DNA of 64,000 nt. Origin: Schmidtea polychroa. Its lineage: Eukaryota. The stretch's first letter is position 1; each line of letters begins with the position of its first letter. A program made the position numbers and the translations under genes. A model generated the notes under the pieces. It was not told the DNA's origin. It saw only the letters and a program-made list of their open reading frames with translations, and searched no databases. This document shows positions 12,217-41,918 of this stretch, piece by piece. The stretch lies in assembly GCA_044892525.1 (NCBI GenBank), contig CM097886.1, forward strand, positions 31,186,001 to 31,250,000. The letters run 5' to 3'.

Positions 12217-12364
12217 CATAGTGCCCGTGAATCACTTCACGTTGGTACTGCACTATGCAGGCGAGACGCCAGCAAGCAGGTGAGCTTCTGCCTTAAAACT
12301 ACTCCTTGCTGAGGCCTCGACTTCCCATTCACGACTGCCGATAGAAGGGCTTACGTCCATTTCC
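12217..12364 (-). ncRNA. Conserved three-domain structured RNA element near the LTR end (copies at 3409-3550, 6507-6647 and 38179-38326)
   Basis: Stems covary among three divergent LTRs while the loops UUCUAAC/UUCUAUC, RCUCAC and AGUACCAA are conserved; G-U pairs favour the minus strand. Confidence 0.7.
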
Positions 12365-12623
12365 TTACACAACCACCTATCAGGATTCGCTGAATGCAAA
12401 TTGGGAAATTCTCACTAGATCTTGCGGGTTCTCTACTCAACCCACTTAATTAAAGTCTAATTATTCATGAACGAAAACGTGTAAGACAACAAAATTTATT
12501 AATTTCAACGTTATGACACAAGGATTCAGCTGTACACTTTACTAATGTTGGTCGAAAGAAGAGAAAACATCATAATCAACATAGATCGGATCCTTGTTCC
12601 TCATCCTGACCGCCACTGGGGTT

Positions 12624-13412
12624 TTATTGTTTCTCCCATTCAGTGTCGGCGAATAATTCATCGAGGTTGAAAAACTCGGAAGCGTTCTCTTCCCACCTTA
12701 CGCCAGCGGCTGATATGATTCGCGCTGAGGGTCCCGTTGTTAGGTCGATGGACACGTGAGAGTTGCCACCGTTGGTTGAGTCCTCTATTGATGGGATGTT
12801 TGGCTTTGTAGTGGCGCGCTCGCGCTGTCTCTTCTTGCGCTCTGCACGAGAGAGTTGTTTGCGCTTGGGTTTGCTTGAAGAGGCCACTTGCAGAAGGGTG
12901 ACTGAGACGGATGGACTAGCAGTGGGGGGCTTACTGGTACCCGTGATGACAACATCTGGTCGCTTGGGGGACAATTCGGTTTCGACGCAGTCTCGGCACG
13001 GTCTCTTGAACGGTGGAGAGGGATTCGAGGAAAGGTTGTGATGAGGCGGAAAGATGTCATCGGCCTCTCGGATGGGAACCTGCACTATTTTTCGGGTTGT
13101 AGCCGCCTGCACGTAAACCTTATGCAGTGCCTCGGATTGTTCTCTGATTAGACTTCTTTGGGCACGGCTCTCAGATATTAGCGCGTCCCGGCAATGCTCG
13201 CTACGATCGAGCTTCTTTTGGATCTCTTTCATCCGAGCGGGACTAAACCATGTCCCTTCCAGCTCGTCTATCTTCCTCTTGTAACGTCCAATCTGAGTTT
13301 GTAGGTCCTTTATCACCGTATTTTTATCCGCGCACGAGAAGCACGGCCGTAATGCTGATTTAGTGGTTGGTAGCATGCTTGCTATAAATAATACTAATGA
13401 AATGTAGAACAT
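12624..13412 (-). CDS. LTR-encoded 262-aa protein (ORF-B family: coiled coil, S/P-rich, basic NLS-like stretch)
   Basis: IDELEGTWFSPARMKE matches CRNFECTWFPPAEMKK; identical copy at 38586-39374. Confidence 0.7.
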   Translation of the reverse strand: MFYISLVLFIASMLPTTKSALRPCFSCADKNTVIKDLQTQIGRYKRKIDELEGTWFSPARMKEIQKKLDRSEHCRDALISESRAQRSLIREQSEALHKVYVQAATTRKIVQVPIREADDIFPPHHNLSSNPSPPFKRPCRDCVETELSPKRPDVVITGTSKPPTASPSVSVTLLQVASSSKPKRKQLSRAERKKRQRERATTKPNIPSIEDSTNGGNSHVSIDLTTGPSARIISAAGVRWEENASEFFNLDELFADTEWEKQ

Positions 13413-16851: not shown

Positions 16852-16891
16852 TCATTATGTTTATTTACAATTGGTTTTAATGACCCTTAAT

Positions 16892-19007: not shown

Positions 19008-20396
19008 TTACTCCGTTCTACCCTTCTCCTCTTTCCTCACGGTCATCTTGATATATATGGTATCATTTCTCGCCATATCTTCTACTCTTTGTTGTGAGAT
19101 GAACGTAGGTGCTCCTGTTGCTGATCCTTCTTCGTTGAGGGGCCTCTGGTAAGCTATTTGATTCCCCGTTGTTTTGAAGCTTTGCTCATGTATACTTTGG
19201 TTGTTCATCAGAGTAATATCGATTTTTGCCTGGAACGGCCATTCTAATATTTCGTCGTATTCTCCTTTACATAACAGAAAGAAAATCGAAAAGTGCGTAT
19301 CCAATCCGGTTCCGTCCCCGTTGGGATATACCTTCATTTTCATTTTGTACCCATTTTTCCAAGAATGGAATGTAGGACTTGTTATTCTTGTCTCTTCTCC
19401 GGTTTTTGCTTTTCGTATTCTTTCTTTTACTCCCGTTATTTTCCATATGTAGGGTGCTGTTGGGGTTATCTCATTTAGATTTATTTCCCGTATTTTCTGA
19501 TGTAGCTCCTTGGCCTGATTATTACTGATTTCTGTTCGGTTTATTTGCATCTTTATGTTTGCTCGGGCTTCTTCGAACGCTTCCCTTTCTTCTAGTAGTT
19601 CTTTGACTAACACTTTCAACGATGTTATCTCTATCTCCATTTGTTTTACTTTCTCTTCGCTTTCTTGTAGCGCAGTCGACCACATTTCTGCGTGAGTTGA
19701 AGCATTTTCTACTAAATGATGTGGTAACTCACCTCGGTGTAGTAGTTTCTGACAACCCCATCTACCTAGTACACATGTCATTCTTTTCTTTGCGCATTCC
19801 CTTAGATGCTGTGCCACCTTCATTATTTCCCCTTGGTTACATCCGTTTGGGCATTCCCCACTGAACTCTGCACATACTCTCTCCTCTTGGACATTGTGAT
19901 GTTTGAGGGTGAGATTTATCCACGTATCTATTTCTCCACAGTGTTCACATCTTTCCAATCTCTCTTCACACTGCCTTTGATGCTCTTTTTCTTCGCTTGC
20001 TCGAATGGTTTTATGGCACCTTTCACACTGGCCAATTCTGTACATACATTCTCCCATATGTTGTACTACCTTCCATATTACTCCTTTCCATTCGCATGGG
20101 GCATTTTTGCATCCCAGGTTGGTGTTTAACATGTCTTTCACTGCGGCTTTATCCTCGTTAGTGTCTTCTAAACTCGATATTAGTGTCTCTTTACACACCG
20201 GGCACCTCTGTGGTCTATTCTTTATTGCTTCACTGATACATTCTTTACATACTCTGCATCCACATTGCGTTTGGTGAGGTTCCTTTAACAGCTTTTCACA
20301 TATTCCGCACGTAACATGTTTGTGTATTCTGATCGTTGTAGATTTTCGGACTTGCTCGACAATCTCTCTGAACTCTTCTCTTTGTCGTTTATCCAT
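19008..20396 (-). CDS. TRAF-family protein (RING, TRAF zinc fingers, coiled coil, MATH/TRAF-C), intronless, inside the retroelement
   Basis: CGICEKLLKEPHQTQCGCRVCKECI..CPVC RING; YIWKITGV..SPTF..GYKMKMKVYPNGDGTGLDTHFSIFFLLCKGEYDEILEWPF MATH. Confidence 0.93.
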   Translation of the reverse strand: MDKRQREEFREIVEQVRKSTTIRIHKHVTCGICEKLLKEPHQTQCGCRVCKECISEAIKNRPQRCPVCKETLISSLEDTNEDKAAVKDMLNTNLGCKNAPCEWKGVIWKVVQHMGECMYRIGQCERCHKTIRASEEKEHQRQCEERLERCEHCGEIDTWINLTLKHHNVQEERVCAEFSGECPNGCNQGEIMKVAQHLRECAKKRMTCVLGRWGCQKLLHRGELPHHLVENASTHAEMWSTALQESEEKVKQMEIEITSLKVLVKELLEEREAFEEARANIKMQINRTEISNNQAKELHQKIREINLNEITPTAPYIWKITGVKERIRKAKTGEETRITSPTFHSWKNGYKMKMKVYPNGDGTGLDTHFSIFFLLCKGEYDEILEWPFQAKIDITLMNNQSIHEQSFKTTGNQIAYQRPLNEEGSATGAPTFISQQRVEDMARNDTIYIKMTVRKEEKGRTE

Positions 20397-20481
20397 TCTA
20401 TAATTATATGTACAAATAGTTCTTATCGATACAGGTTCGATATTTTATTTACAATTATTTACATTTTAAGCTAGGTTTGGT

Positions 20482-21001: not shown

Positions 21002-24000
21002 CTATATACGTGAGTTTGGAGGGCGCTGAGCGTTCCAGGCCTCCACCCACTGTTCTTGTTTGATATCACTTGGTCGTTTCACTCGATGTTGGAAATTTCT
21101 GATTCGAGTCATCTCTAGTTCTCCGCGGTGTCGTTTATCCTTAATTATTTTTATTGTTCCCCCCGTTATGATTAGGAATGCCCCTGTTATTATTATCCCA
21201 CTGATCCACATCATCTGCTTCACGCTTATACTCTCTGGTTTTTCCTGGTTTGTTAATGTTGATATTGCTTCTGCACTTTTCTCGTTCCCTCTTTTGCCGT
21301 TTCCTTTCATCCTTTCCCGTATTCTTGCTATTTCCTCGTTCATACCCTCCTTTGCCATCTTTTGTATTTTTTCCATCTCTTCTTCCGAAACATAGTTGTC
21401 CTGAGCTTCCTCGCCGGTTTTCTTGTGCTTTCCTCCTTCGTCCTTTTCGTCGCGGTTTTTCCTTTTCTTTCCTCTTTTCCCCGGGTATCGTCGGCATTCT
21501 CTTTTTGATTCGTTTCTCCAGATACAAACCGTATATTCCTTCGGGGGCTGCTGCTGCGTCACATATTGATGGCATCTCTCACCCGGTCCTAATCTTGAAA
21601 TACAGACTTTGTGCTCTTTTCTTGGTTGGAGCTGCGTTATTACTACTTCGCCACCTTTTCCTAGGTGTACCTCTTTTCCTTTAACGTTCGTTATTCTTTT
21701 CCCGTCTCGATTTCGGTATGCTTCTTGTATTCTTACTTCTGTTATTGGTTCTGTGTCCTCATTTATTAGTACTAGTTTCTGATACGCTCTAGACATGCAT
21801 CTTCCTAGTATGCACCGTTCCTTTAAGTCCCATTCTTCCTTTAAATCCCACTGCTGCTCTTGTGCTTGCTTTTTCTTTTCTTGTTTTAGTTCGTCCTCTT
21901 TGCTATCTTGATTCTCCGCTTCTTTGGTTTCTTTTATCGTTCTCGTCCCTCCATGAGCTGTTACTAACTCTATCATGGTAAGCATAATTATCATTAATAT
22001 CATATTTGTCTCTATTTCTTTGTTAGTGAAAGGTAGGCATACCCTCTGTTTTCCATTATTCGATTTTTCCTCCTCTTTGGTCTTAGTTCCCGGGCTGTTT
22101 CCCTCTCTTTTCGTATCCGAATCCTTGTTTTCCGGTTTACCCCCCTCCGGTTCTCTTTTCTCTTTATCCTCCTTTCGGCCTTTTCCGTTATTGTCATCGT
22201 GTTTATCTCCCCCGCTGTCGTTTAAAATGTCGTCCTCGACATTTATATCGTTCAATAATCTGCGATATGTTGTTAGCACTCTGTTTCTTGCTAATTTTGC
22301 TTCGAATTCAAACTCCTTTCTGCCCGTTGCAGCGTGTCTCTTTCTATTCCATTCTTTGACTAATTCTCTTAATTGAATGCGACGATGTTTCCCAATTCTT
22401 TGTTGCTCGTTCTGATTTTGCGTGAATTTTAGGTCTTCTCTATTTAATACTATTAAAATAATTTTAGGCGTCCCCCCCTTAGTTAGGGTATTCTTTACCA
22501 TCGCATTTTCTCCGTTTTCGTAGAATTCGTTTACATTTATCGCATATTTATTATTTTGTGGTACTCTCCAGGTTAATAATAATTTCATTGCTTCTCGATT
22601 TTTCCGTACCGTATTCCATTGAAACTGAGATGTGTTTTTGCACATATTTTCAACTTCTTCTTTTGTCGCATTTTTGCAAATAAATCTGATCATTTCTAAG
22701 TTTGGCTGTATGGTTGCCCAGTCCAAGGTGGAATTTCCTTCATTGGACCTTTCGTCTAGTTTCGATCCTGATTGATGTAGGATGTGGAGTGTTTTTGGGT
22801 GTATTTTCGTTATAGCTGCATACATCATGGCGGTTTCACCTTGTTCATTTTTCGTGTTGGTTTCCTCGCCCATCTCCCCAAGGATTCTCATGATCGTTAT
22901 TGCTCTATTCTCTTTTGCAGCTAGTATTGCTTGTTGTAGAGGTGTTCTGGAATCCTTCGTTACCATCGTAAATGCTCGAGGCAAGAAGGTTTTGATTTTC
23001 CCGATATCTAAATCCGTGGTTTGATCTCTTGCGTATGTGTGTACGGTTTTTATTATTTTGGACAATATTATTTCGTCTGGCAGCTCTAGCATTTCCTCAA
23101 AGAACACTTCTTTTGCTTTGCGTATTATTGCCTCTTGATCTATACTCATTGATTTGGTTTCGATGACGTTGTTTGTGACCGTTTGGTTCGTTGTTGACTT
23201 TGATTCCCTGGATTTCTCATACCTTATTTTCGTTTTCTTTCCGTTTGGATTATTGATTCGTTCCTCTGCTGTAAGTATTTGGATAATATTCAGGTAATTC
23301 TCGCGGATGTTATTCATTGTGTCCATCATATATAACACACTTACCGTTTCCCAATATTTATTTCGTACTTGGTTAGTAAATTGGAATAGGGATTTTTCGA
23401 ATGTGTCGATTCGCTTTTTTGCTAACTGTTCGTCTTTATGATTTGTGAATTTTATCCCTCGTTCTAGTAATTGATTCGGGATTTCGAATAACTGATGTCC
23501 TTTCATAGCTTCTCTCATCAGCGTGTTCTCTCCTCTCGTGAACGCTTCGTTTACGTTGATCATATAATCGTTTCGAATTGGATTTCTCCATGTGATTAAT
23601 ATTCCGGTAATTGTCGTCAGTTTTTCTTTGATCGCTGTTAACAATCCATCATACATGTTTCCGACTTCCCGATTGTCCTCATATGATAGTAGTTCCATCA
23701 ATGACGTGAACGCCTCGGTACTTCTCCCTTCGATAGCATGGTGTAGAGCGTTTTTCCGCTCGTGGTCTTGTGTAGTTATTTTCGATCCGGTATCGAGTAA
23801 CGCGGTTATAATGTCTTTTGTTTTACCTCTGTTTGCGGCTATCATTAATGGTGTGTAACCTTGGTTGTTTGTTTGTTCTGTTGATCGCTTGCAGTCGTGA
23901 AATGCTTCTATTGTTTCTAGTATTTGCTCGTTGTTACCTACTTTCATGAGTTTGTGTAATGGTGTGTCTCCGTAATGATCTGTTATTGTAAATAATATTG

Positions 24001-26521
24001 GCCATTGGCTTTTGACTACTCGCAATAATGGGTGTGTCCTTTCTCTATTTGCATAGTTCTCGATCATCGTCAATAATCCTCCTAATATTTCGAAATCTAA
24101 TCGATCTTTTGCCCATCCAGGTATTTTAATTTTTACCTCCTTTACAATCTTTTCCGCTTCTGATGGTTGGATACCTAATCGTCCAGTGATCGGTTCTGCG
24201 AGTTGCTGCATCATGTTCATTCGGTAGGTTTGCGAACGTGTGGTTAATGTACGGCCTTCTGGTTGACTAGTGGCTGTTTTTGGAATTGATTTGCATCGTG
24301 CCACGTTTACGTATATTGGCCTGGTAAAGGGGTTATTTACCAATTTCACTCTTACATTAGTTTCGCCTACGAATAAGATTTCATAGGGTCCTTTTCCGTT
24401 GCGTTGTAACTTTTTTGTGGTTCCTGGAATTAATTCCGGGGTTTCTATCATTACCCAATCACCTGTTTGGAACGTATGTTGCTTCACGTTTTTCTTTCGA
24501 TCGTGTAAATCTTTATAACTTTCCTGGTAGAACTTGATATTTAATCCCGCAGTTTCCCAAATTTCTTGCATTCTTTCCTTGAATCTCGTAACATAATCGT
24601 CGATCTCCATATACTGCGATATCGGTGGTTGGTATTCCAGGTCCATTGGCATGTTGCACTCTCTTCCGTACATTAATTTAAATGGGCTCATTTTCGTTGA
24701 TTCGTGAATTGACATTCTGTACGCCATAAGACATAGGTTTATATATTCGTCCCAATCTCGTTGGTGACGATCGACGTAATTTGATAACATTTGTATAAGT
24801 GTTCCATTAAATCTTTCCGTCATCCCATTGGTTTGAGGGTGGTATGGAGATGTTCTTAGTTTTGCTATTTTGAAGTAATTTGTTACTTCGCTCATTATCT
24901 CACTCATAAAATTAGTTCCCTGATCGGTTAAGATTTGTTTTGGTGTTCCATATCGGCAACATATCTCTTCTACCAAAATTTTTGCGATTGTTTTAGCTTT
25001 TTGGTCTGGCATCGCGAATGCTTCTGGGAATTTCGTAAGAAAGTCTGTGATCACTAGAATGTAAACGTTTCCTTTATCTGACTCTGGTAGTGGACCAACT
25101 ACGTCCATGGATATCATTGTCATTGGTTCTATTGGTACTGGCATTGGCGTTAAAGGTGCTTTCCATTTCGATCCAGTATTCTTCCTGGTTGCACAAGTTA
25201 GACAATTTTTTACCCATTCGGTTACATCTTCAGTTAACGTAGGCCAAAAATATTTCTGTTTCATTCTTGCTAACGTCTTTTTCGATGACATATGTCCTCC
25301 CAATCTCCCATCGTGATATTGCGTTAGTAACTCTTTTCGTCGGTTTTCCGGTATACACATTAATCGTTTTTCCCCATCCATTATCAGCAACCAATCTTTC
25401 TCTATAATATATCGGTGTCGGTGTTTATCCATATGTTCTTTTAATTTTTGGTCTTTCGCATATACCTCTGTCTTTCCGGTTTTTACATAATCGATAATTT
25501 GTTTTAATTCCGCGTCCTCTTGTTGGTCCTTTCGCAATTGACAGAAATCCAAATCTTCCGCTACTATTAAGCATATGCGTTGCATTTCTGAATCCACCAA
25601 ATCTGGGAAAATAAATCTTGACATACAATCGGCGTTGGCATTTGCTCTTCCCGCTTTGAATTTTATAAATGGGGAGTATTCTTGCAATTGCATGGCCCAT
25701 CTCATCAGTCTACTGGACGCTTCTTTATGTTGCCCTAACCACACTAATGGTTGATGATCTGTGGTTATACATATCTCATGTCCCCATAGTAAGTATCGGA
25801 AGTGTTTGATAGCTTGTATTATAGCCAATGCTTCCCGTTCTGTTACCGAATAGTTCTTTTCGTGCTTTTTGAATGTTCGACTGTAATACCCGATTACTCT
25901 CTCTTTTCCTTCATCATCTAATTGTCCCAGAATCGCGCCTGCCGCGTACCCGCTTGCATCCGTTGCCAATAGAAATGGCTTCTTAAAATCTGGGTGTACG
26001 AGGATAGGTGCTTCGATTAGTTTATCTCTCAGCGTTTCGAACGCCTGTTGTTGTTCTTTTTCCCAAATGAACGAAATATCCTTCTTTACTAATTCCTGGA
26101 TTGGTTTTGCAATTCCTGCATAATTTTTGATAAATTTGCGATAGTATCCGCATAATCCTAGAAATTCCTGAACTTGGGTGACAGTTTTCGGTGCTGGACA
26201 TGTTTTTATTTTCTCAATGTTTCTTGGATCTGGCTCCTTTCCTTTAGCTGACACTATGTGTCCTAAAAACGTGACTTTTTCCTTTGCCCAATCGCATTTT
26301 GATGGTTTGAGTTTGAGTTTCCACTGTCTTAATCTAATAAATACGTTTCGGATATCTTCTAGATGTTGTTCAAATGTCGCTGAATAGATTAGTAAATCAT
26401 CAATATATACCATACATTGTTTGATTCCATGGGTGACAAAGTTCATACACCGTTGAAATGATGCTGGTGCGTTAGTCAGTCCAAATGGCATTTTCCTGAA
26501 TTGATATAGATCTCGTCCCAA
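21002..26521 (-). CDS. Polyprotein part 2: RT C-half, RNase H, integrase (HHCC, DDE, GPY), two ankyrin blocks, signal/TM, FN3-like ectodomain, TM, tail
   Basis: MPFGLTNAPASFQR, VYIDDLLI, LATDASG, TDHQPL, HDGRLGGH..CLTC, SMDVVGP, TDQGTNF, NGMTERFN, GPYEI; GDTPLH, GYTPLMIAA, KNALHHA, RTPLQQA, GETAMMYAA. Confidence 0.93.
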   Translation of the reverse strand: MGRDLYQFRKMPFGLTNAPASFQRCMNFVTHGIKQCMVYIDDLLIYSATFEQHLEDIRNVFIRLRQWKLKLKPSKCDWAKEKVTFLGHIVSAKGKEPDPRNIEKIKTCPAPKTVTQVQEFLGLCGYYRKFIKNYAGIAKPIQELVKKDISFIWEKEQQQAFETLRDKLIEAPILVHPDFKKPFLLATDASGYAAGAILGQLDDEGKERVIGYYSRTFKKHEKNYSVTEREALAIIQAIKHFRYLLWGHEICITTDHQPLVWLGQHKEASSRLMRWAMQLQEYSPFIKFKAGRANANADCMSRFIFPDLVDSEMQRICLIVAEDLDFCQLRKDQQEDAELKQIIDYVKTGKTEVYAKDQKLKEHMDKHRHRYIIEKDWLLIMDGEKRLMCIPENRRKELLTQYHDGRLGGHMSSKKTLARMKQKYFWPTLTEDVTEWVKNCLTCATRKNTGSKWKAPLTPMPVPIEPMTMISMDVVGPLPESDKGNVYILVITDFLTKFPEAFAMPDQKAKTIAKILVEEICCRYGTPKQILTDQGTNFMSEIMSEVTNYFKIAKLRTSPYHPQTNGMTERFNGTLIQMLSNYVDRHQRDWDEYINLCLMAYRMSIHESTKMSPFKLMYGRECNMPMDLEYQPPISQYMEIDDYVTRFKERMQEIWETAGLNIKFYQESYKDLHDRKKNVKQHTFQTGDWVMIETPELIPGTTKKLQRNGKGPYEILFVGETNVRVKLVNNPFTRPIYVNVARCKSIPKTATSQPEGRTLTTRSQTYRMNMMQQLAEPITGRLGIQPSEAEKIVKEVKIKIPGWAKDRLDFEILGGLLTMIENYANRERTHPLLRVVKSQWPILFTITDHYGDTPLHKLMKVGNNEQILETIEAFHDCKRSTEQTNNQGYTPLMIAANRGKTKDIITALLDTGSKITTQDHERKNALHHAIEGRSTEAFTSLMELLSYEDNREVGNMYDGLLTAIKEKLTTITGILITWRNPIRNDYMINVNEAFTRGENTLMREAMKGHQLFEIPNQLLERGIKFTNHKDEQLAKKRIDTFEKSLFQFTNQVRNKYWETVSVLYMMDTMNNIRENYLNIIQILTAEERINNPNGKKTKIRYEKSRESKSTTNQTVTNNVIETKSMSIDQEAIIRKAKEVFFEEMLELPDEIILSKIIKTVHTYARDQTTDLDIGKIKTFLPRAFTMVTKDSRTPLQQAILAAKENRAITIMRILGEMGEETNTKNEQGETAMMYAAITKIHPKTLHILHQSGSKLDERSNEGNSTLDWATIQPNLEMIRFICKNATKEEVENMCKNTSQFQWNTVRKNREAMKLLLTWRVPQNNKYAINVNEFYENGENAMVKNTLTKGGTPKIILIVLNREDLKFTQNQNEQQRIGKHRRIQLRELVKEWNRKRHAATGRKEFEFEAKLARNRVLTTYRRLLNDINVEDDILNDSGGDKHDDNNGKGRKEDKEKREPEGGKPENKDSDTKREGNSPGTKTKEEEKSNNGKQRVCLPFTNKEIETNMILMIIMLTMIELVTAHGGTRTIKETKEAENQDSKEDELKQEKKKQAQEQQWDLKEEWDLKERCILGRCMSRAYQKLVLINEDTEPITEVRIQEAYRNRDGKRITNVKGKEVHLGKGGEVVITQLQPRKEHKVCISRLGPGERCHQYVTQQQPPKEYTVCIWRNESKRECRRYPGKRGKKRKNRDEKDEGGKHKKTGEEAQDNYVSEEEMEKIQKMAKEGMNEEIARIRERMKGNGKRGNEKSAEAISTLTNQEKPESISVKQMMWISGIIITGAFLIITGGTIKIIKDKRHRGELEMTRIRNFQHRVKRPSDIKQEQWVEAWNAQRPPNSRI

Positions 26522-29500
26522 CGTGAAAGCTGTTTTCTCTTTGTCCTCATCTTTGACTTTAATCTGCCAGTATCCACTTTTAGATCTAAAGAAGTAAAAT
26601 ATGCTGCCCCTTGCAACATCAATAACATCTCATTGATGTCCGGCAATGGATAGGTATCTCTCTTGGTCACTGCGTTTAACTTCCGATAATCGATACAGAA
26701 TCGTTGGGTGCCATCTTTCTTTTTTACCATGACCACTGGGAATTGCCAAGGTGAGCAACTTGGTTCGATTACTTTTGCGTCTAGCATCTTTTGTACTTCT
26801 GTTTCGGCTATTTCTTTCTGCATTTCTGCTAGCTTGTATGGTCTCAATGCAATTGGGGTTTCGTCTATGAGTGGTATTGCATGTAAGGTAACATCACATG
26901 TACCCAAGTCTAAATCTGAGATGGCGAATATATCTTTATATTCTACCAACAATCGGTGCAATTTTTTCTTTTCGTCATTCGTCAACAACATACTATCTAT
27001 TGTCCATAATTCATCATCTTTGATCATCTCGTTGGTCACTTTCGGTAATTCTATGTCCATCATTGGGGTCAATCTTCCCAATTTTTCGTTCTCATAAATG
27101 ATTTTGTCTTCCTCTTCGAAATTCGTGATGTTGAGCGGTATCACTCCTTCTTGGTTTATTGTGATTATTTCTCTTGCGAGTGGTAATTCTCGTCGCTTTT
27201 CGAATGACTTGCTTGGTTCAAAGATAACTTCTCCTTCCATACCCGTATCCACTTTTATCTGACAAATCATCTGCGATTTTGCTGGTACTATTATTTTTTC
27301 TGGACATCTGATGACTGCATTCATTTTGCATATTCTACCGGTTTTGTCTTTTAAACACATGGTTGTTAAGTCAATTACGACTTCCTTTAACAATTCTGGC
27401 ATCAAATCCGTTCCGATTATGCATGGTACGCTAAGTTTTGGTATTACTGCCAAATACGTTTCAATTTCGTTGTCCTGGTATCTCAATGTAGTCCACCATC
27501 TTCCGACCACGTCCACTGTTTCTTTACTACATGCTATAATGTGAATTGTTGTTGATTCGATATCCTTCCAGTGTTTACTGGGGATTTGATTAATCGCTAT
27601 CGCTGATACATTAGCTCCGGTGTCTATCATAGCATTGGTTTCTTTACCATTGATTTGAATCATAACTGTTACTGCTGGACCTCCAGGTAAACTCATCGCT
27701 GCTATTGTTCTTACGTCATCTGCTTGATCTACACTTTTGGTACGTCGTGTTGGCATATAATGCATACCGGGTTGACTCGGTAATTGCGGATACATATTTT
27801 GTGTCATGGTCAAAGCTGTTTGTGGTCCCACGATATCCGGTGGTATATAGCTTCCATTGGCGATCCAGGTGTTTGTCTTTTCCTTTTCCCAATATGGTGC
27901 CGTTTCCATTGGTTTTTCGTTTGGGTTTCTGTTTGGATAAAGACATTTATCGTTCCCGTTATCATCGTCGTCACTATCGCTGTTAGATGATTGGCTTCTA
28001 AATCGGTCCAAGAATTTTGGCTTATTCTTTTTCAATTGTCGTCTTGTTGCTTCATCGTACATTACTTTCCGGAATCGTCTGCCTACTTCCTCGTCGGTTC
28101 CTTTAATCTTTGTTAATATTTTAATCAATCGCTTTATCCGATGAATGTCTTTTGAGTGACCATGTAATACCATGGTTTTAGCTAAAAATGGTAAGAAGCC
28201 TACTATCATTTTCCAATTTACTTTCTTTTCTCGCTTGTATATATCAAAACAAGCTAACATTTGTGTTAGTATTACTCTGACTATCTGAATTATGAGTATG
28301 ATCCCTAATATCCCGGCCATCATTTGTCCAAAAACTAAGAATCTTCCCCACATTGCTTTCATCATGTTTGACGTAGCTTGTTGAAAATGGTCTGGCGATA
28401 ATAGCAGCTCGTAATTCGGGCCTGATTGATAGTTTGTGCCCCCAGTTATTGTTACCATATTAGACAAAATGGATTCTCGTCTGGCTGGAAAGAGTACGTT
28501 AAGCCGTGCTGTTTCTAGATCTTCTGGGGAATACATACCACCGTTTGACACGTCTATAGGTTTGAAATCTAGCTCTGTGGCGAGTTCTATTAATCCAAAT
28601 TTCTTGGGTTCCTCGGATATGGTTTTTCCCGGTAACATCATCCATTTCCCATCGGGTCTTTCATACAAAGGTCCGTATGCATTAGAACAGTTAAAGAGAT
28701 TTGGGTAGAAACCCACTGGATTCATAATTCTAGTGACTGGTTGGACGAATCGATTTTGTCCTTTATAACGAATTTCTAATTCATTTGCACATCTCTTTTC
28801 GGGTAGTATGGATTTTTCTGGCATTCGTGCATACGTCTTGGTACACTGGTATGTGTACATCACTTCTCCTACCATTCTACCAAAGTGTCCATCTGGTAAT
28901 GGGAGTGATGGCATCGTGTTATCTGGGTGCGTTATCGCAATAGCTAGCTTTGTTTTCAATATTTCTTTATTCAATGAACAATCGTTTTGTATCAGATCGT
29001 AATATACTTTTTGCAAGGTCGTTTGTCCGCGATGAAATAGAAAATCCATTTTATTATTTGCATATAAGTATAGTTTTACGTCCTCCGTTGCTATCTTTCC
29101 CACTGCTCTATCGATTATTTGTCTCGACATATAGATACCTGCGTAATTGGTTTTATATACTATACTGTCACATTTGGTGGTTTCTTTCTCTTTGATAAAT
29201 CTCATACCTAGATCTGGATCGTCTGTGATTAATGCTGTTGGTGTCTTCTGCGTTGAAAGTCTCTTTTCTCTGGGAGATGGTGGCATTGGTTTTCCATTTC
29301 GCATTCTCACTCTGTCGTTTCCATCCTCGTCGTTCTCGTTCTCATATATTTCTCCTTTTACTTCATTGAACAAAGCACTTTTTAACAGTTGGAGTCGGCA
29401 TTTTTGGGTATTAGCTTCATAGATTATAGTTGATACTCCTGTCCTGCATACGTTTTCTGTAGCTCTACACGTTGGGTTGGTCTTCATTTGGTAATTATTT

Positions 29501-32500
29501 GCGTCAAATTGCGCTTCGTATTCTTTTAATTCGACCGTGTAAGACTCGATCACTACAACTCCCGATATTACCTCGCCTCGGATCGTATACGTACCTCCGT
29601 TACATGACCCATCTGATGATTTTACTTTTCCGGATACGTAAACACTTTCGGTTTTAATCATTCCAGTTTGTCCGTGAATTGTCACTCCGTTATGCATTTT
29701 TAGCGCTCCGGTTCTAAATAGCTCTTTACAATCCTCTCGTTGTATTGATACGATTTCCTTATCCAGACCGGGTAGTATAAGAGTCGAATACGAATATTGT
29801 CCACAGTAATATGCGAGTACCTTTTTTGATACTACGCATTCCCTTGCTTGCGTTCTGATGAAATCTGATTCTTGATATACATGGTAAGTAACTTTTGTTC
29901 TCACGATGTCCAATTTGTTGGGTGAGGCTTGTCTGCATTCTTCTATGTCTCTCAATGAGTATTTATCTCTCATTATCATATTATCACAATCGTAGATGGT
30001 GAAACCTGTTGCTCCACTTGTGCACAACATCCATATCATCATAGTCATCATTAACGAATTTATTGATGCTTTTCTGCTTGCGGGATCTTTCATCGGTAGT
30101 TCCCATTCTAGTTCATTTAACAGTTTTTTCAATCTAACTTGCATCGACCTTTCTTGCTCATTTTTCCGTGGCGCTTGTATCAGTCTTTTCCATCCTCCTG
30201 CACGAATAATATGTGGTTCAATAGTATTCTCTATGATTGAAACGGTCATTTCCACATGATTTGCAAACTGTTTATTTGGTATTTTCCTCGCAGCTAGTCC
30301 CATCAAATTATACATCAAATAAGTGATTACCACTAGGTGATGTTCGTCATCATTTGCATTTGTCGTGAGCTGCTCAATCACTCTCTTTGTTTCGTCCCAA
30401 TCCGTTTTGGTGGTTTTCGTTTTCTCTTTGATTAACTTTGGGATTATCCCCGAAATGGTGTGCCATAATTGTCTAGCTTCCGTACTGGCTACTTTCCGTT
30501 GCCACAAACGTCTAAGTTGTGGGTTTGTTATTATTAACATATCTTTTAACAATTCTCGTATCCATTTTTCTCCTCTTTCGATCGTTGGTTGGGCTTCCTT
30601 TAGATCCCATACTATTTTATCCAATTTTTCTAATCGAACTTGCCCTTGTTCTTGCTTTAATTGTTCTTTGGTTTTGAACTCAGACTTTTCTCCTTGTTTC
30701 TTAGGTCTTCCTTTTGCCCGTTTTTCCATCATCGTTCCGGCTTCTCTGGTATTTTCGTAATTCGGATTTCTTTCGTTATCCGTTCTGGGTAATGAGCTAT
30801 CGTTATTTCTTAGCCACTCATTCCATTCGTCTATTATTTTGTCGGTTTGACCTTCTGGTGTTACTTTCGTTGGTTCTCTTTGCTTCTGGAATTGTTCATC
30901 CGTTTCGGTTTCCGTAGTATTGTCGATGATTTCTTTGATGTTCAGTTTCGTTGGTTGTTGATAACTCGTTGATGGCTGGTTATTAGTCCACATTTCGGCT
31001 CCTGTCGGCCATCTCACTAATAGCGGTGATCTTTCTCCTGGTTCATCGTCACTATCTTCCAGGATTATCTCTTCAACTTCTTCAGTTTCATTAGATTTAC
31101 TTGGTGCTTTGTTCGGACTTGGAGTACTCAAACTGCCTTTTGTTGGTTTAATAATTTTACTTTTCCTTTTTAACGGTTTTCCCAACGTTTCTGCCATTGT
31201 TAATACATTTGTCTCTTCCAATCTCATGGGGGTTATCCCGATGTCTGCATTATCGTCTAGTGATTTTCCGAACAGTTGCAGATGGAATGGAGTTTCATAT
31301 GCTAATTTCTTTTTTAATTCTCTAATTTTTGTTGTTGGATGCACCTCTAGTTCCTCGATGCTCTTGTCTGGATACTTGATTCGGATGTGATACCTCTCCT
31401 GGGTGTCTTGTGCCCATTCCTGATTTCTCCATTTTCGAATAATTTGTTCTAGCTGTTCTGGATACCATTCATTATATTGCCGGTATTCCTCTATTGCCTT
31501 TGCCATTCCTCTCAGATTGTGGATGTCCTCTGATGTCTTTAAGATGATGTTAGCCAACGCTACTACTTGGCGTCTTTGATTTTTCGCTCCCATTGCTAAA
31601 ATATCGCCTAATTGTTTATATCTTTCTTTCTCTTCTCGTTCTCTTGCTTCCGTCGCTTCCTCGCCGTCCATATCAGCATATTCACGTTCCTTTTTCCTCA
31701 TTGCATGAATATGTCTCGCTTCATTTTCGCTTTCTGATGTGACATCCGTCTCGCCTTCGTCATCTGATGTCTGTCCCCTTGCTTCCTCTTCATATTCTGG
31801 GGGTTCCTCTTCTTCTTCCTCCGATTCACTTTCTGTCTCACCAATGTCTGTTTCCACGAAGGTTCCTTTCCGGATTTCCCATTCCTTACTTTCTGCATTC
31901 CACACTCTTTCCCATGGGGTTCGTCTGCAGGATCTGGTGCTTAATTTCGTGATTTTTCCTTGTAGTTCTTTTTCTTTTAACCATTGTTGGTGGATTTTAA
32001 TTATTTCCGTAGATTTTTGATATAACGTTTTCATCCGGTCTCGTATTTCTTTTTGATAGGTTACATCTCTTGTTCGAAATTCATCCATTGGTACTATCCT
32101 GATTATCTGATGATTGTCCCACATACCCATTTCGCTTAACGAGGTGTCGTCCTCCGCTCGTAATATTATCTTATCGTACATCATGACTACATCATCCACC
32201 ATACCATCACTACTTTCGCTACGTACCTTCTCCGTTATCTCTTGGTTTATTTTTGATACCAAGTCATCCACTGTACTCTGATTGCTCATTTTTATTCGTC
32301 GTTTTTCTTCGTTCGGTAACCATATGGTTATTTCCAACCTCTGTGGCTGGGTTTCTTTTAACCTTCCATATTTGTGGATCAAATTTATGGTTCTCCAATC
32401 ACTCATTCGGAGCATTTCTGTATCTCGCAACCGGCTCATTAGTTCGTACATGGCTGGGGCTCGTCTGGTGATGAGTAAATCCCAGTTGTCTTCTACTTGC

Positions 32501-34854
32501 TCTTGAATTTGTTTGATCAGCTTATCCAGGTTTCGTCTCAGAGTACATTGTTTTATTTGTTCTAATTTCAATTTGATATTAAAATCATATTCTGCCTTGG
32601 CATCTTTAGCCCAGTCGTAAAGGTTGGCTGGTTGTTTTTCTTTATGCAACTTCAGTATTTGCGTTTCTCCTGGCCATATTAGTGCATCTACTAAGTGCAT
32701 ATCTGGTTTGATCTGTTCTCCTTGGTATTGATACAGATATTCTTTCTTTCTCGAACTTCCCAAATGCTCTCGTATCCAATCGAAAAGTTCGTCGGTGACT
32801 GTATTTTTTATCCACATTCTTTCAAGTCCTCTACTCGTTCCGATTTTTATTACATACCGCGTGGTATCGGCCTGCTTCATTTTTTCCATATAATTTTTTA
32901 TAATTGATTTTTCCTCGTTTGGTATTAAATCTTTCTCGTTTCTTTCCAATTTCATCACTTTTTGCACGAATCGCCTGAATGGTATTACGTCAATGAACTC
33001 TTGGTTCCTCACTACTACTGGGAGTATTTCCGCTACTTGTTTTATCGCTTCCTCCTTCCCTTTTCTCAACTTTATTTCGATATCCTCGTCTTCACTTTCG
33101 CTGGTTATCTCGCTTTCGCCTTCTTCCTCTTTGATTTCCCCTTTTGGAGGTTCGCTTATTTCATTCAGCTGTAGTATTTCTCCACCCAAACTACTTACAT
33201 AGTCTTCTTCCTCGTCTGACGATGCTACATCTTTTGTCCTTTTCATCATATTGATTTGCAAGTTTCTCATCCTTGGTACTCTCTTTAGTTTCTTTCTTTC
33301 GAATATCGTTGTTTCTTCTGATTCTAATTCCTGTAGCATTTGGTGGTTTAGTTGACTGGTTTGTTCCTTGCTCTTGTTATTTTCATCTTCTGTCTCGGCT
33401 TTCGCTTTATTATGTTCTTTTTCGATTTTATCTTTTATCTTTTTCCAGAATATTTTCTGAATTCTCTGGTTTCCTTTTAAAATCGTGGTTGAATTCTCTG
33501 TTTTCATTTCCGTTGTTATTTCTTTTACCTTTTCTGGTTCAGTCATGGGTACTACCCTTGGGCTTTTCCCGTAATTGTAGCAATACTGGCTCTTCATGTC
33601 TTTTACTAACCTCATCATATTTATTCGCAATGGTTGTTCTTGTCGTTGTTGGTTGCGTTCTTGTTTTATCTTCTCTTCCTCGGCCTGTAGCCTTTGCCAT
33701 TCTTGTACATGTTGATGCACTTCATAATTGTTGAGATTTTCGGTACTCCTCATCATACGTATATTCTGGGTTTGTTGTGGTGCTGATTCTTGTCTTGGTC
33801 TCATCATTTGCTGCATCATCTGTTTCATCTGCGAAATTTCCTGCATAACGTTCATTTGTTTTCCTTCGTTAGGGTTACTTTGTCGTTGCGGATTCGCTAT
33901 ATAATTATTATTTCGCTGTGGTGGTCGTTGTTGTTGGCCCCTTTCTCGGCAATCTCTGGAGATGTGACCTGGCTGACCACAGTTAAAACAGCCTCGCAAT
34001 TGGCATACATTTTCGGTATGTCCACGCCGTCCGCAACGATTACAATTTGAATTTCTATAACAATCTCTGTCCCAGTGTCCTGGTTTACCGCATGTTCGGC
34101 ACTGCTTGTTATCGTTCATATTTCGCCGATTATTGAAATTGTTCTCGTTATTCGGGTTGTTACGATTACCATTATTCCCGTTTGATCGTCCTTGTGGTGG
34201 TTTGAAAATTTGGTGCGCTCCTGGTATAAATTGATTCATTTTCGGTTCTTGATTGTTGTTATCTCCGTTATCCGCTTTCGCTATTGCTGTCGCTATCCTT
34301 CCCTCCTCTTGCATAATATTCATTTGAGCTGGAAGGTGGAGCTCGCATCTTGTAGCCCAGTCTATGGCTTCCTCTAATGTTTTGCACATTTGACAACCTA
34401 CTGAGGCTCTTACTTCTTCTCGGCGTAATCCCTCTATGAAATAACCGATCAGATTTTCTTCGGGTAATTTTCCATTCATTGCTTTCTTCGCTAATCTCCG
34501 CAATTCACTGGCATATAATGTTATCGATTCGTTTGCTCTTTGTTTCCTATTTGCTAGTTCGCCCAACGCCTGGTTGATTGGCTTACCGGCTCCGAAGGTT
34601 TTCTTCAGGAATGTTTTAATATCTTCCCACTTTTCTAATTTCGTGTCTCTCTCTTTAGCTTCTAAATATACCTCTAATGCACTATCGCACAAAAACAACG
34701 GCATCCTTTTACTAATTGCTTCGGGTGTCCATCCACACACAGTGATATAAACTTCAAAATTAGTTATGAACGATGCTAGCTTGTTTGCGTTTCCGTTGAA
34801 CGGTTCTCCTCTGAACTTCTCTTTATACTCGTCGGTTTTTACGACATTCGTCAT
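26476..34854 (-). CDS. Polyprotein part 1: Gag (CA, three CCHC knuckles), accessory modules, Bcl-2-like domain, envelope glycoprotein, aspartic protease, dUTPase-like linker, RT N-half
   Basis: [79 protein letters not shown]; Cys-rich ectodomain between a signal peptide and a TM. Confidence 0.93.
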   Translation of the reverse strand: [2792 protein letters not shown]

Positions 34855-36164
34855 GATTGGTGTTCTAGGTTCGTCTGTTTCTTTTAAATTGTCTAACGAT
34901 GTGACTAAACTTTGGGCTGATAATTCCTCGGTTGACGTTGCTAAACTATTAGTGATATCGGACAGACTTTCTCTACTTCGAGATCGACTAGGGGTATATC
35001 CGAGATTTTCTTGGTCAAATATGGGTACTTGATTGGTTCTTCTGGATCCTTGTGATATTCCTCTTTGATGTTTAATGGATCGTCCTCTTTTGAGTTGTTG
35101 TAATTCGTCTCCTGAAAATAATACGTCTCCTGGCTTACTAGAAGATCTAAGATTGGGTTTATCCGTGATTCCTTTCTTACGCTTCTTGGTAATTAGCGGC
35201 TATTGAATTGGACGCGTTCGGTTCTGATTGTGTTTCCTTCGATAAATATTCTGTATGAATCTGCTACTGAGATCCTGAGGAGATTTACTAATCCTTGGCA
35301 GATGGCTGCTAATACTTCTTCCGTTCTGGAGTCTTCCGGTTGCTGTGTCTCTCGGTGCGGGTTCTGAATGGATTTATCCTTGGTTGATTGTCGATTTCTT
35401 CGAATTCCTTTTGTGCAGGTTCTGGATTGTCTTGGTTGGCTGGATTGGCTTGATATCTAAAATGAAAAAATGATCTCGTGTTGCATTTGCTTACACGACT
35501 TCATCATTCTTTCTACAACATTCAAAAACAGACACCTTTTAGGTTTCTGTTTGTGCTTCCCCTATCTTTTGTGAAATCCTTTCTGCGGGTTATAATATCC
35601 CATCAGCCCGTATTTTCCGTCGATTTTAAATTATCTATATGGGGTAGTAACAATTATCTATAAAGTCGTAATAATTATCTATTCGTTATCAATTATAGTA
35701 AAAATAGGTCGTTGTCGGTCTCTGCTTATTACCCCCCTTTCATTTTCCTAATCCTTTTGCGCTGTTGTCGCTATTTTACTTTTCATATTCACTATTATTA
35801 CGCTCGGTTCTACTCTGGAACCAATAAAATGCATTTTCCCGGTTTAATCAAAAAAAAAATATTCCGTAGAGTTTCTCTACTTCACTGGGATCCCTTTAAT
35901 TAGTTAGTTACTTTCCTCTTTACTCATTATCATCATTTCATCTATTCTTTATTTTCTATTATCTCTTTACTTCGTTTCCTTCTTCCCTTTCCTTTTTCCT
36001 TATAATCTTATTTTCTTTTCCACGAGCTCGTTTATTTCCTCTCTAAACTCGAATTTTCAAAATTACATTCAATTTGTTCTAGCTAGCTTTAATATTCCAT
36101 ATCACTAGTAATTTAAATATTATCTCGTTGTAGCTTAACTGCTATCTCTCGCTTTTCTAGGCCT

Positions 36165-37223: not shown

Positions 37224-37709
37224 TCATTCGCCATAATAGACCATATGGGTCTCTTTTATTTCATATTTGCACATCGTGCATCTTTTTAGGTCTTTTACAC
37301 ACTCTTCACAGTGACTGAGGTGTCCACACGGCAAGAATAATACGCGAATAGGACGGAGTTTGCAGGCTATACAAGTTCGTAATTGGTTAACTTTTTCCTG
37401 TATTTTTTGTTCGATTGCATCTGGTATTGTATTTAGTGAGTCTTTTAGACGCTGATAATCTAGATTTAATGTTGGGTGGTTCAATCTCTCTTGATACCAC
37501 TGATATACGGTTTCGGGGTTTATTTTTCCATCTGGGCGACTTAGGCCTGTGGCTAATATCATATGATTAGGTACGACTGGTGTTTGTCCGATTGCTTGCA
37601 GTAATATCGCGTTGATTTTTTCTCTTTTATGCGTCAGTGTTGTTAGGGAGTCGTTTTCTATATCGATAAACTTGAGCAGTTGTTGCATTTGGTTCGCGAA
37701 TTCTGTCAT
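37224..37709 (-). CDS. C-terminal IAP/MGRN1-type C3HC4 RING protein (putative E3 ligase, no BIR seen)
   Basis: CIACKLRPIRVLFLPCGHLSHCEECVKDLKRCTMCKYEIKETHMVY at the extreme C-terminus. Confidence 0.85.
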   Translation of the reverse strand: MTEFANQMQQLLKFIDIENDSLTTLTHKREKINAILLQAIGQTPVVPNHMILATGLSRPDGKINPETVYQWYQERLNHPTLNLDYQRLKDSLNTIPDAIEQKIQEKVNQLRTCIACKLRPIRVLFLPCGHLSHCEECVKDLKRCTMCKYEIKETHMVYYGE

Positions 37710-38026
37710 AGCTGTTGGAAAAGTAATGTTTTAATAATATGTAGTAAATTAATAGTTAATTCGTTAATTGGTTTCTTTAACCATTGTTAATTATTTAATT
37801 TGACTACTTTATCTCCTTTATTTATATATATCCTTAATTTTTCTATTATCTACATTTTGATTTTCTCTACCTAGTTCCTAATATAATTTAATAATCAATA
37901 GTCACTTTGCATTCGTCAAGCAATGGTCGATTGAAAATAGAAAATCGATGTGATAAATCCCTTTAATTTTGTATGAAAATCCCGGTGAATTTCGCATTCG
38001 TTAATAGAAATTTCAATCGACTGTAG

Positions 38027-38051: not shown

Positions 38052-41000
38052 TGTTGGGGTTACACCTCGGCTGACCATTCTACCATGTTGGCGGGTCTAA
38101 GGGTTGATTGTCCATCTCGAATAAAAGGTGCCACCGATTTGTCAACCTGGAGTGAAACCCCACATAACTTTCTTCCAACATAGTGCCCGTGAATCACTTC
38201 ACGTTGGTACTGCACTATGCAGGCGAGACGCCAGCAAGCAGGTGAGCTTCTGCCTTAAAACTACTCCTTGCTGAGGCCTCGACTTCCCATTCACGACTGC
38301 CGATAGAAGGGCTTACGTCCATTTCCTTACACAACCACCTATCAGGATTCGCTGAATGCAAATTGGGAAATTCTCACTAGATCTTGCGGGTTCTCTACTC
38401 AACCCACTTAATTAAAGTCTAATTATTCATGAACGAAAACGTGTAAGACAACAAAATTTATTAATTTCAACGTTATGACACAAGGATTCAGCTGTACACT
38501 TTACTAATGTTGGTCGAAAGAAGAGAAAACATCATAATCAACATAGATCGGATCCTTGTTCCTCATCCTGACCGCCACTGGGGTTTTATTGTTTCTCCCA
38601 TTCAGTGTCGGCGAATAATTCATCGAGGTTGAAAAACTCGGAAGCGTTCTCTTCCCACCTTACGCCAGCGGCTGATATGATTCGCGCTGAGGGTCCCGTT
38701 GTTAGGTCGATGGACACGTGAGAGTTGCCACCGTTGGTTGAGTCCTCTATTGATGGGATGTTTGGCTTTGTAGTGGCGCGCTCGCGCTGTCTCTTCTTGC
38801 GCTCTGCACGAGAGAGTTGTTTGCGCTTGGGTTTGCTTGAAGAGGCCACTTGCAGAAGGGTGACTGAGACGGATGGACTAGCAGTGGGGGGCTTACTGGT
38901 ACCCGTGATGACAACATCTGGTCGCTTGGGGGACAATTCGGTTTCGACGCAGTCTCGGCACGGTCTCTTGAACGGTGGAGAGGGATTCGAGGAAAGGTTG
39001 TGATGAGGCGGAAAGATGTCATCGGCCTCTCGGATGGGAACCTGCACTATTTTTCGGGTTGTAGCCGCCTGCACGTAAACCTTATGCAGTGCCTCGGATT
39101 GTTCTCTGATTAGACTTCTTTGGGCACGGCTCTCAGATATTAGCGCGTCCCGGCAATGCTCGCTACGATCGAGCTTCTTTTGGATCTCTTTCATCCGAGC
39201 GGGACTAAACCATGTCCCTTCCAGCTCGTCTATCTTCCTCTTGTAACGTCCAATCTGAGTTTGTAGGTCCTTTATCACCGTATTTTTATCCGCGCACGAG
39301 AAGCACGGCCGTAATGCTGATTTAGTGGTTGGTAGCATGCTTGCTATAAATAATACTAATGAAATGTAGAACATACGATTTTAGAATAAATTAGATACGA
39401 CCTACGGCCATTCGTGGATGCTTGACCGACAAAAAAAAAAAGAAAACTTATTCTACAATCCGGTTTTACCACGGATCTTATTTGTTGAAACAGTTTTATT
39501 TAATCAAATGCCATCGGTTTGACGCATGCTATTAACTTTGACTCTCTATTGATCTAACTGTATACATGAGGGGCGTAACAATTAATAGGGTGTAAATATA
39601 ATATTGGTGAAATAATATAATAACGCTTTAGTGGAGGGACATTATAGTATGCGACTAAACCTTACTATAAATTAGCTATTTTAATTTATTAAAAACAAAT
39701 TACTATCGCTATTCTCAACATATTTTTGATTCGAAATTTGTTATTGGAAGTGTACTTTTAATTCGGTAGTGAATGTGATTATCCATGTTGTCTACCATTT
39801 GTCTGAAAATATGTGATGAGTTTACATCAGCCATTACTTGAACACCCTAATGGGATATCTCATTGGTCATAGCACATGTCCAAATTTACGGATACTACTG
39901 TCGACTAGTTGATTACATTATCGAACTATTGTGAATGTCACGTGTCGCGACTATCATGTATGCTAGTCTGATATTCTGTGCTCTCACCACATGGATTCGT
40001 GTATGGCTACTATCTTATCTCATTTACTTGGTGTATGCCATTTTCACAGTGATTTTATCGATCCTGCTGTCATATGATTTTCTCTGCACGGTGATTTATT
40101 TGAATTATGATTTATGCTACCGTCAGTTCTCATCGCGGAATTTTACCCTTATCAACTTGTGTGAATGATCACCATCGTTTGGAAATTTATTGGATCTTTT
40201 CAGTGATCGTCGAGGGAATAATTCTACCAAATGCTGAAGCATATTACTACTCGCGTCATTCTACTCGGATTTTCCTATTCAGATGTAATGCCGTCTCGAT
40301 GAAAACTGTCCTTAGCCATTCGAAAATTTCTCTCAGGTTCAATAATTTGGATATATACCGTGATGACCTGGCTCTTATTGTAGAAATAAATGTTATTAAT
40401 TAAATTTGGTGATATTTTACCTGTTTATAATTTTTGAAATAACTAAGTCTATAAGAACTTTCTGATTATAATATTAGAGAGGTTTTCGTAGAATCTCGCA
40501 TTTTATAGTTTCGAGTTAGTTAAAGTTTTTAGAATACTTTCGTAACCTGACATGCAATCAGGACAGGCTAGACGTCATCGGGTCTATGATAACGGAATTT
40601 CATACGAAATCAGTTCTACTGAGGCCGGCAAATAGACGTTGTCGCAATTAATTTGATGAAACCATGTTTCCAGATGAAGCGTACTATGAGATGTTGTTAT
40701 TTTTGACGAAGTTCACTAAATCGTGGTCTGGATCTCTTTTTTCAATAGGGGTAAGATTTACGAAAACGACTTGACGAAAGAAAAAGGAATGCGACGCCCT
40801 CAGTCACTGTGCAAATCCTTGAAAATCCCTTCATTCGTACGACTATCTTTGTGAAATCATTGTCTACCGGTTATTTTTTATCCATACCCCATTATGATAA
40901 TTTAGTCGCATCTTCAGCGATAGGACCCGTGAAGAAGCCTTCACATTTCGGCCCAATCTAGCTGCGTGATTGAAATACTCCATGTCCACCGGCTGAGCTC

Positions 41001-41918
41001 CCGAAGGCACCTCATACCATGACATGGAGTATCTCAACTCCACGTTACTCGTTAAATGAAAATTCATAAAATCTTTAATTCAAATAAAATACGGACATCT
41101 GGATAAAAATATTTTATTAATTCTGAAATACTTAAATAATACAAATTCCATCAATACGTTAAAGTTATTAAAATGGAGAATCAAATGAAGAGAGTTAACC
41201 AAAATGTTTAATCGTTAATATTTACCATTACTATTAGCTTTACAAATACTTAAATAAATCTATAAACAAATGAAATACCCCTTACTATTGTTTAGGCTGA
41301 GTCAAAATTCAATGTTGTTCGTTCCAAATAGTTTGAATGGTGGTCCGTTGGATGTCGATTATTGTGATGGATGGTATTTCGGTCTCTGAACTGGTTTTGA
41401 ATAGTCGTGGAGTTTTCTGAATGACGGTTGCTTGGCTAGTAGTGTCGATCCTATGAAATGCTCGGGGTTAACAGTCAAAACAGTAAACATTTTTCTTACC
41501 TATGAAATGCTCGGGGTTAACAGTAAATTTAATGTTTTTGGTAGTTGTATATATATCAAATTCTTATTTGTGCGGACCAATCAGAGTTGAGTACCGCTTA
41601 TTTCTATTAATTTAATATAATTTTCTTGTTTTTAGGTTGTTTTTTCCTTATTTTCTTTATTTTTAATATGTTTTTCTATTTATTTCCTTAATTTCCTTAT
41701 TATTTCTTGAATTCCTCTTTATTTATTTGTCAACTTGTTCTATTTTAATCTTTTCTTAATTTTATTTTTTGTTTTAATTCTTATGTCTTAATTATTATTT
41801 TCCTTATATCTTATTCTATTTTATTTCTGATTTTATTTATTTTATTTTTATTTTTCGTAATGTTCTACTTCCCTACTTTCTTATTTTTCAACGATTAAAT
41901 TTTCGACTCAGCCCAACA
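38052..41918 (-). repeat. 5' LTR of element Z
   Basis: Direct repeat of 12090-15956, followed on the minus strand by the PBS. Confidence 0.95.
38586..39374 (-). CDS. Second copy of the LTR-encoded 262-aa ORF-B protein
   Basis: Identical translation to 12624-13412. Confidence 0.7.
   Translation of the reverse strand: MFYISLVLFIASMLPTTKSALRPCFSCADKNTVIKDLQTQIGRYKRKIDELEGTWFSPARMKEIQKKLDRSEHCRDALISESRAQRSLIREQSEALHKVYVQAATTRKIVQVPIREADDIFPPHHNLSSNPSPPFKRPCRDCVETELSPKRPDVVITGTSKPPTASPSVSVTLLQVASSSKPKRKQLSRAERKKRQRERATTKPNIPSIEDSTNGGNSHVSIDLTTGPSARIISAAGVRWEENASEFFNLDELFADTEWEKQ

Follow-up and report, generated by a model that had tools for sequence, protein, structure and literature searches.

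Closest described systems

Most descriptions of viral Bcl-2 proteins concern large DNA viruses. For the planarian Burro retroelements, a BCL2-like motif located between env and the Gag region is already in the literature (PMC6431247); it is credited to Grohme et al. 2018 for Burro-2, -3 and -4, and env lies between BCL2 and protease (section 7). The initial annotation of the locus studied here had implied that such a domain was new, and this part is not supported. In its account of Burro, PMC6431247 gives the motif as a label, without fold, origin or groove residues, and states that a link with apoptosis awaits experiment. Our search of the literature on retroelement Bcl-2 found no test of fold or function of the domain, and the figures and supplements of Grohme et al. 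2018 may hold more. The presence of the domain and its layout are known; its fold, single origin, selection and remodelled groove are added here.

The window, meaning the whole stretch of DNA that was analysed, comprises 64,000 nucleotides of Schmidtea polychroa (assembly GCA_044892525.1, contig CM097886.1, positions 31,186,001 to 31,250,000), and it contains a giant element named Z. Burro/GYPSM1 (Jurka 2007; Grohme et al. 2018, via PMC6431247) and Z are alike in length (~30 kb), in having LTRs and in one huge ORF, with 4,732 aa in other copies of Z and 4,873 aa as printed. According to the description in PMC6431247, both have three CCHC knuckles in Gag, in-frame segments of ubiquitin-like, BCL2-like and env type ahead of the protease, ankyrins and MATH/TRAF, and the order Gag - BCL2 - env - PR - RT - RH - IN is matched by Z. 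Unlike in the published Burro, TRAF is a separate downstream ORF in Z. The BIR domain of Burro had no Pfam match among the 26 window ORFs scanned, which were those from 80-150 aa upwards, and its dUTPase-like segment had none between protease and RT in Z. The likeness concerns the layout published in PMC6431247, not the sequences of the named Burro-1 to -4. BURRO1 transcripts were seen in PIWI-depleted planarians according to PMC8532177. The present region is covered by contigs from two sequencing runs, whose RNA nature is a guess only, and these contigs are left out of the evidence.

Three other groups can be compared. The GAG-ENV-POL errantiviruses of Platyhelminthes of HSV/gB type (Chary and Hayashi, PMC13524379) also have env between gag and pol, many copies and a flatworm host, and a word search for 'bcl' in the text and seven supplementary files of that paper gave nothing. 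The Bcl-2 proteins of dsDNA viruses listed in PMC11209288 (ASFV A179L, herpesvirus BHRF1, KsBcl-2, poxvirus M11L, F1L and DPV022) share with the domain of Z the fold (Z-score 6.9-13.0), a virus-like carrier and a C-terminal hydrophobic segment. Unlike them, the domain of Z is inside a retroelement polyprotein, has a predicted Env signal-peptide (ER) anchor, lacks NWGR and has a putative activity. Bcl-2 genes of Maverick/adintovirus elements (known from PMC8502044) are likewise cargo of mobile elements and occur in the same genome, and they share a helix-5 Tyr with the element domains and one host gene; however, the Maverick genes are stand-alone, retain the BH1 Trp and are outside the retroelement clade.

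Structure of element Z

Z is an LTR element of 29.8 kb on the minus strand (12090-41918). The two LTRs show 100% identity, and with a target-site duplication of 4 bp this makes Z a recent insertion. Its features are as follows.

38052..41918, minus strand: 5' LTR (TG...CA), 100% identical to its partner, with ATAT target-site duplication
37224..37730, minus strand: accessory ORF with RING C3HC4_3 at the C-terminus (Pfam PF13920, E 3.7e-11)
26476..35199, minus strand: ORF part 1, with Gag (three CCHC knuckles), cargo region, Bcl-2-like domain, Env, protease and start of RT
31180..31419, minus strand: ubiquitin-like segment (weak) upstream of the Bcl-2-like domain (Pfam ubiquitin E 0.0039, under cut-off)
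30169..30573, minus strand: Bcl-2-fold domain, 135 aa modelled, eight helices (AlphaFold, structure comparison, Pfam Bcl-2 E 0.015)
30004..30075, minus strand: predicted internal signal peptide of Env, with basic residues, Met-rich hydrophobic run and small residue before the conserved Env start
28234..30003, minus strand: Env, Monjiviricetes-type fusion glycoprotein (Pfam PF24664, E 3e-70), with furin-like REKR and transmembrane helix at 28267-28323
21002..26629, minus strand: ORF part 2, with RT, RNase H, integrase and ankyrin repeats
19008..20444, minus strand: TRAF-like accessory ORF with RING, zinc fingers, coiled coil and MATH (Pfam MATH_2, E 3e-27)
12090..15956, minus strand: 3' LTR, 3,867 bp, like the 5' LTR

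One frameshift separates the two ORF parts in the window copy, and many copies of Z elsewhere in the genome have 4,732-aa open frames. All 150 genome matches scored among 740 candidates were 94-100% identical over the domain, and in four of them the matching stretch contained a stop.

Two of three suspected ubiquitin-like segments were dropped, with matches only at E>=0.1 or none. The C3HC4_3 RING of the ORF at 37224..37730 is presumably of the type known from IAPs. On the 3' side of pol (16183-20868, minus strand) the accessory ORFs encode a complete TRAF-like protein, two coiled-coil proteins and a small product resembling a type I membrane protein. The polyprotein tail past the ankyrins (21002-22200, minus strand) has two more hydrophobic segments, which suggests a possible second surface protein in this tail. 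A short basic GRP motif, which we take to resemble an AT-hook, precedes the Bcl-2-like domain in Z (30690-30715), and the same is found in the second family (L176) and in P0005. Besides the two elements, the window contains a further gypsy remnant of smaller size with protease, RT and integrase, as well as a tandem array of 15-bp units and part of a class II tRNA-synthetase gene (43947-46562, 59487-61160 and 3-1568).

Sequence of the Bcl-2-like domain

The motifs of the Z domain are located as follows.

30535..30564, minus strand: helix 1 (model helix H2-16), WIRELLKDML at the BH4-like position, by motif location
30340..30351, minus strand: position of the BH1 NWGR signature, DDEH in Z, by alignment to Bcl-xL and column counts
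30181..30222, minus strand: BH2-like motif IEPHIIRAGGWKRL, with GGW kept and His in place of the first Trp

With the Pfam model that had been proposed as a check, Bcl-2 (PF00452) was the best match of a 137-aa piece of Z (E 0.016), but its 16.2 bits were under the gathering cut-off of 31.4 bits. In the two longer of four Z cuts, Ribosomal_L17 was slightly ahead of Bcl-2. Against the same cut-off, the family of the second element in the window reached 29-30 bits, below it, and the outside protein P0002 reached 31.4, at it. Bcl-2 was found at E<=0.1 for 26 of 29 aligned element domains.

These 29 domains, natural open-frame sequences from six families of the genome, formed an alignment with no cellular Bcl-2 included. 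The profile made from it reached Bcl-xL at E 8e-5, and the Bcl-2 family occupied all of the best 60 rows of 126. In the reverse direction, a profile built on 10 host/cellular Bcl-2 proteins gave every one of 10 element domains a higher score than any of its 1000 shuffled versions; for Z the score was 12.5 bits and the best shuffle had 8.4, but with the whole window in six frames the Z site came only third with 1.7 bits. Both profiles argue that the element domains are homologous in sequence to Bcl-2 proteins. The single sequence of Z had no phmmer match in PDB at E<=10 and none among candidates from a set of 5.8 billion proteins (0/15 and 0/351).

Predicted fold

From element sequences only, AlphaFold predicted eight helices for the 135 aa of Z, with pLDDT 82.5 and pTM 0.78 (the five models were in the range of 60-82). 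Comparison with 48,161 chains (VIA) placed Bcl-2-fold structures in all of the top 34 positions; the best had a Z-score of 14.0 with rmsd 2.7 A over 135/135 residues, and the best non-Bcl-2 match had 6.4. The top matches were pro-survival proteins: Hydra Bcl-2-4 (14.0), Bfl-1 (13.9), Bcl-xL (13.2) and ASFV A179L (13.0). Foldseek against PDB gave Bcl-2 family members in all 41 rows listed (TM up to 0.74, best E 0.011), and in its viral library the named top rows were Bcl-2 proteins of herpesviruses, ASFV, iridoviruses and poxviruses, with E-values of 0.2 or higher. An earlier model, for which the alignment had 12 rows and the sequence included one more helix at the N-terminus, reached a pLDDT of only 54.7 (top VIA match A179L, Z-score 10.6) and was replaced.

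The annotation had called this a Bcl-2-like domain and named another fold as the finding that would speak against it; a helical bundle matching Bcl-2 over the full length was predicted instead. By the model, the domain of Z has the Bcl-2 fold. Its closeness to pro-survival proteins may reflect ancestry only.

The second element

The other element in the window was described together with Z as giant and as a carrier of the domain.

49509..57567, minus strand: degraded, 5'-truncated copy of a smaller family, with Bcl-2-like domain, env, protease, RT and integrase region (Pfam)
57133..57567, minus strand: broken Bcl-2-like domain, with frameshift near 57415 and stop in BH2
57286-57336, minus strand: BH1-like motif FTTEVNRDKVIMAMAYL
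57151-57192, minus strand: BH2-like stretch with the stop

All four motifs quoted for the two elements are indeed found on the minus strand, each where it had been placed. The domain is real in both elements, but the second one is a truncated, dead copy and is not giant: the ORF of its family has ~3,050 aa vs 4,732 aa for Z. It is 88-91% identical in DNA to loci of its family along most of its length. Homology to the family begins at 57567, at the Bcl-2-like domain itself, and upstream gag is absent. The open 76-aa piece of its domain had a Pfam Bcl-2 E of 0.0068, and open-frame relatives had 1.4e-6 and 8.9e-7.

Ancestry and selection

The domain lies directly before the Env leader in six families of the genome and in five outside proteins. 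We also sampled loci by env (14 of 68 scored, selected to cover different frame lengths and irrespective of Bcl-2), and in 14/14 the domain precedes env, 12 of these loci belonging to one family and two to another. Among 1.84 billion representatives searched there were 10 matches, of which five continued into the start of Env, three were short element-like pieces and two were cellular Bcl-2 proteins.

In a tree of 31 rows, 18 element rows stood on one side of a branch (support 99/98) and 10 host/cellular plus three Maverick rows on the other; eight outside rows in this tree had been found via the element profile, and its branches are long. Trees of the Bcl-2 domain and of Env (12 rows) had the same three family groups. 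The single clade, the agreement with the Env tree and purifying selection together support the proposal that the domain is an ancestral module of this lineage, as do the 14 positive loci chosen by env. These trees fit one capture, followed by inheritance along with env.

The dN/dS of the domain was 0.02-0.37 in 12/12 pairs with all upper bounds <1; these pairs have a common history and so lack independence, and in those of Z the dS approaches saturation. Between two Z subfamilies there were about 14 nonsynonymous and 64 synonymous differences in the domain. In Z, the 120 codons upstream are equally constrained (dN/dS 0.02), and a lower value for the domain than for the flank upstream of it was obtained in only 7/9 pairs, with overlapping intervals. 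Because the flanking linker is constrained too, the selection marks a functional protein stretch and not a specific Bcl-2 activity. The domain evolves faster than Env in most pairs and faster than RT. Since viral Bcl-2 proteins are known mainly from large DNA viruses, a Bcl-2 domain under selection in a retroelement lineage suggests infectious, cell-manipulating agents, here in a host whose cells are continually renewed.

The rows nearest to the element clade were the host locus L042 and Maverick genes, with support of only 80/83 and the branch drawn open, so we do not name a donor. L042 (G000:C1:268544203-268544481) is likely a host Bcl-2-like gene with the helix-5 Tyr common to Maverick and retroelement domains, and no Maverick genes were found around it within 9.9 kb. 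It is a candidate for the donor lineage.

Env leader and proposed membrane anchor

In 14 sequences the distance from BH2 to the conserved Env start was 44-72 residues. Basic residues and a hydrophobic segment continuous with Env follow BH2 in 12 of them; the remaining two, Z-type leaders, are Met-rich and under the threshold used. The signal peptide of Env likely doubles as the membrane anchor of the Bcl-2-like domain. In the simplest topology, the polyprotein would cross the membrane twice, by the signal peptide and by the Env transmembrane helix, leaving Gag and the Bcl-2 domain cytosolic, Env lumenal and Pol cytosolic.

Binding groove

The BH1 NWGR signature of the pro-survival group is lost in every element family: across the 29 rows, Trp is found in 0/29, Gly in 0/29 (Asp/Glu in 28/29) and Arg in 1/29. 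In BH2 (W-x4-GGW), the final GW is invariant (29/29), and the first Trp is retained in most families and is His in Z. In human Bcl-2, each of W144A, G145A, G145E, R146A and W188A abolishes Bax binding (PMC6825947, Table 1), and Z differs from human Bcl-2 at all four of these sites. Judged from its BH1 signature, the domain of Z is outside the canonical pro-survival group. The Arg contact is called a hallmark in PMC7719400, yet poxviral proteins using other residues are noted there, and according to PMC11209288 the poxviral M11L, F1L and DPV022, in which neither BH motifs nor sequence similarity can be recognised, still bind Bak/Bax/Bim.

In two families a BH3-like helix directly precedes the domain; it was rejected, as its Asp is missing and Z has not conserved it. 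Among the host genes there is one of Bak/Bax type whose BH3 looks canonical, and our literature search gave nothing usable on Bak in planarians. When the Z domain was modelled in complex with the BH3 of this host protein (35 aa), the score was 0.01, obtained without alignment and with an uncertain fold of the partner, so that the prediction speaks neither for nor against binding.

Possible function

The non-canonical groove, taken with the poxviral binders lacking BH motifs, determines how we weigh the possible functions. The one that we tentatively favour is a pro-survival role through a remodelled groove, exerted by an ER-anchored domain that a Burro-type ancestor captured once. The ancestor of planarian Burro-type retroelements likely took the domain from a host gene. 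At the ER membrane the domain would then likely face the cytosol, with the signal peptide of Env holding it in place; cleavage by signal peptidase would leave it anchored by the leader stub, as the tail anchor holds cellular Bcl-2, and its release by the protease of the element is a putative step. With the remodelled groove it likely binds pro-death members of the host Bcl-2 family and so keeps the producing cell alive. The predicted ER anchor counts against such a role, as most viral Bcl-2s have a mitochondrial anchor. The cargo nearby (TRAF, RING, ankyrin) is of kinds that suggest a part in cell-death or immune signalling.

That cargo, together with the ubiquitin-like segment in the same element, would also suit a groove-independent signalling decoy, which we consider possible but somewhat unlikely. 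Such a protein would not hold BH3 helices and would block NF-kB/TRAF-type immune signalling like vaccinia N1, or act on ER partners (IP3R, Beclin), and the fixed Asp or Glu that 28/29 rows have in place of the groove Gly agrees with it. A52 and B14 block NF-kB/TRAF-type signalling as N1 does. PMC11209288 gives NF-kB inhibition as the main role of N1 and places Bok at the ER with IP3R. However, the Z model is nearer to cellular pro-survival proteins (Z-score 13-14) than to A52 (8.7), N1 (8.4) or A46 (7.0).

An extended version of events seems to us unlikely. The tail anchor of a captured whole Bcl-2 gene may have become the internal signal peptide of Env, which would have permitted Env in frame between Gag and Pol. 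An acidic residue would then have replaced the groove glycine common to all canonical Bcl-2 proteins and become fixed, and the domain would now be an ER-tethered regulator with a new partner, the retroelement counterpart of poxvirus Bcl-2-fold decoys.

We think it still less probable that the domain has a structural job, as a folded spacer and membrane tether that joins the Gag half to the Env membrane in particle assembly without effect on host cell death. Its invariant position directly before the Env leader, its tracking of the Env tree and the loss of the binding signature are what such a tether predicts, but the nematode and bryozoan GAG-ENV-POL elements, which form separate clades, are described in PMC13524379 without mention of Bcl-2, so the layout may not need the domain.

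A decaying passenger, or a helical bundle merely resembling Bcl-2, would explain the Pfam score of Z under cut-off, the empty single-sequence searches of PDB and the 5.8-billion protein set and the faster evolution than Env (in most pairs) and RT, but it is very improbable and already largely refuted by the selection and structure results, that is, by a structural match that spans the whole domain and stands well apart from unrelated folds, the 14 nonsynonymous vs 64 synonymous differences between Z subfamilies and the retention of the domain in all six families.

Returning to the favoured pro-survival role, the domain is small, its fold is confidently predicted and it lacks the textbook binding residues; with planarian RNAi, this makes it a tractable test of how far the Bcl-2 fold can drift without losing control over cell death.

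Other Bcl-2-like genes in the genome

Seven near-identical intronless Bcl-2-like ORFs with intact NWGR (L031-L037) are located in one region (G000:C4, 89.95-90.83 Mb). A Maverick fragment with integrase and TBP (L184:7392-8942) is the immediate upstream neighbour of the exon that encodes the BH3 in the Bak/Bax-like gene of the host. Stand-alone multi-copy bcl-2 genes occur in Maverick/Polinton-like elements with rve integrase, A32-like ATPase and a TBP-like ORF (L099/L119, L100/L120, L053-L060 and L046-L051). It means that, together with the retroelement domain, two unrelated kinds of mobile element carry Bcl-2 in this genome.
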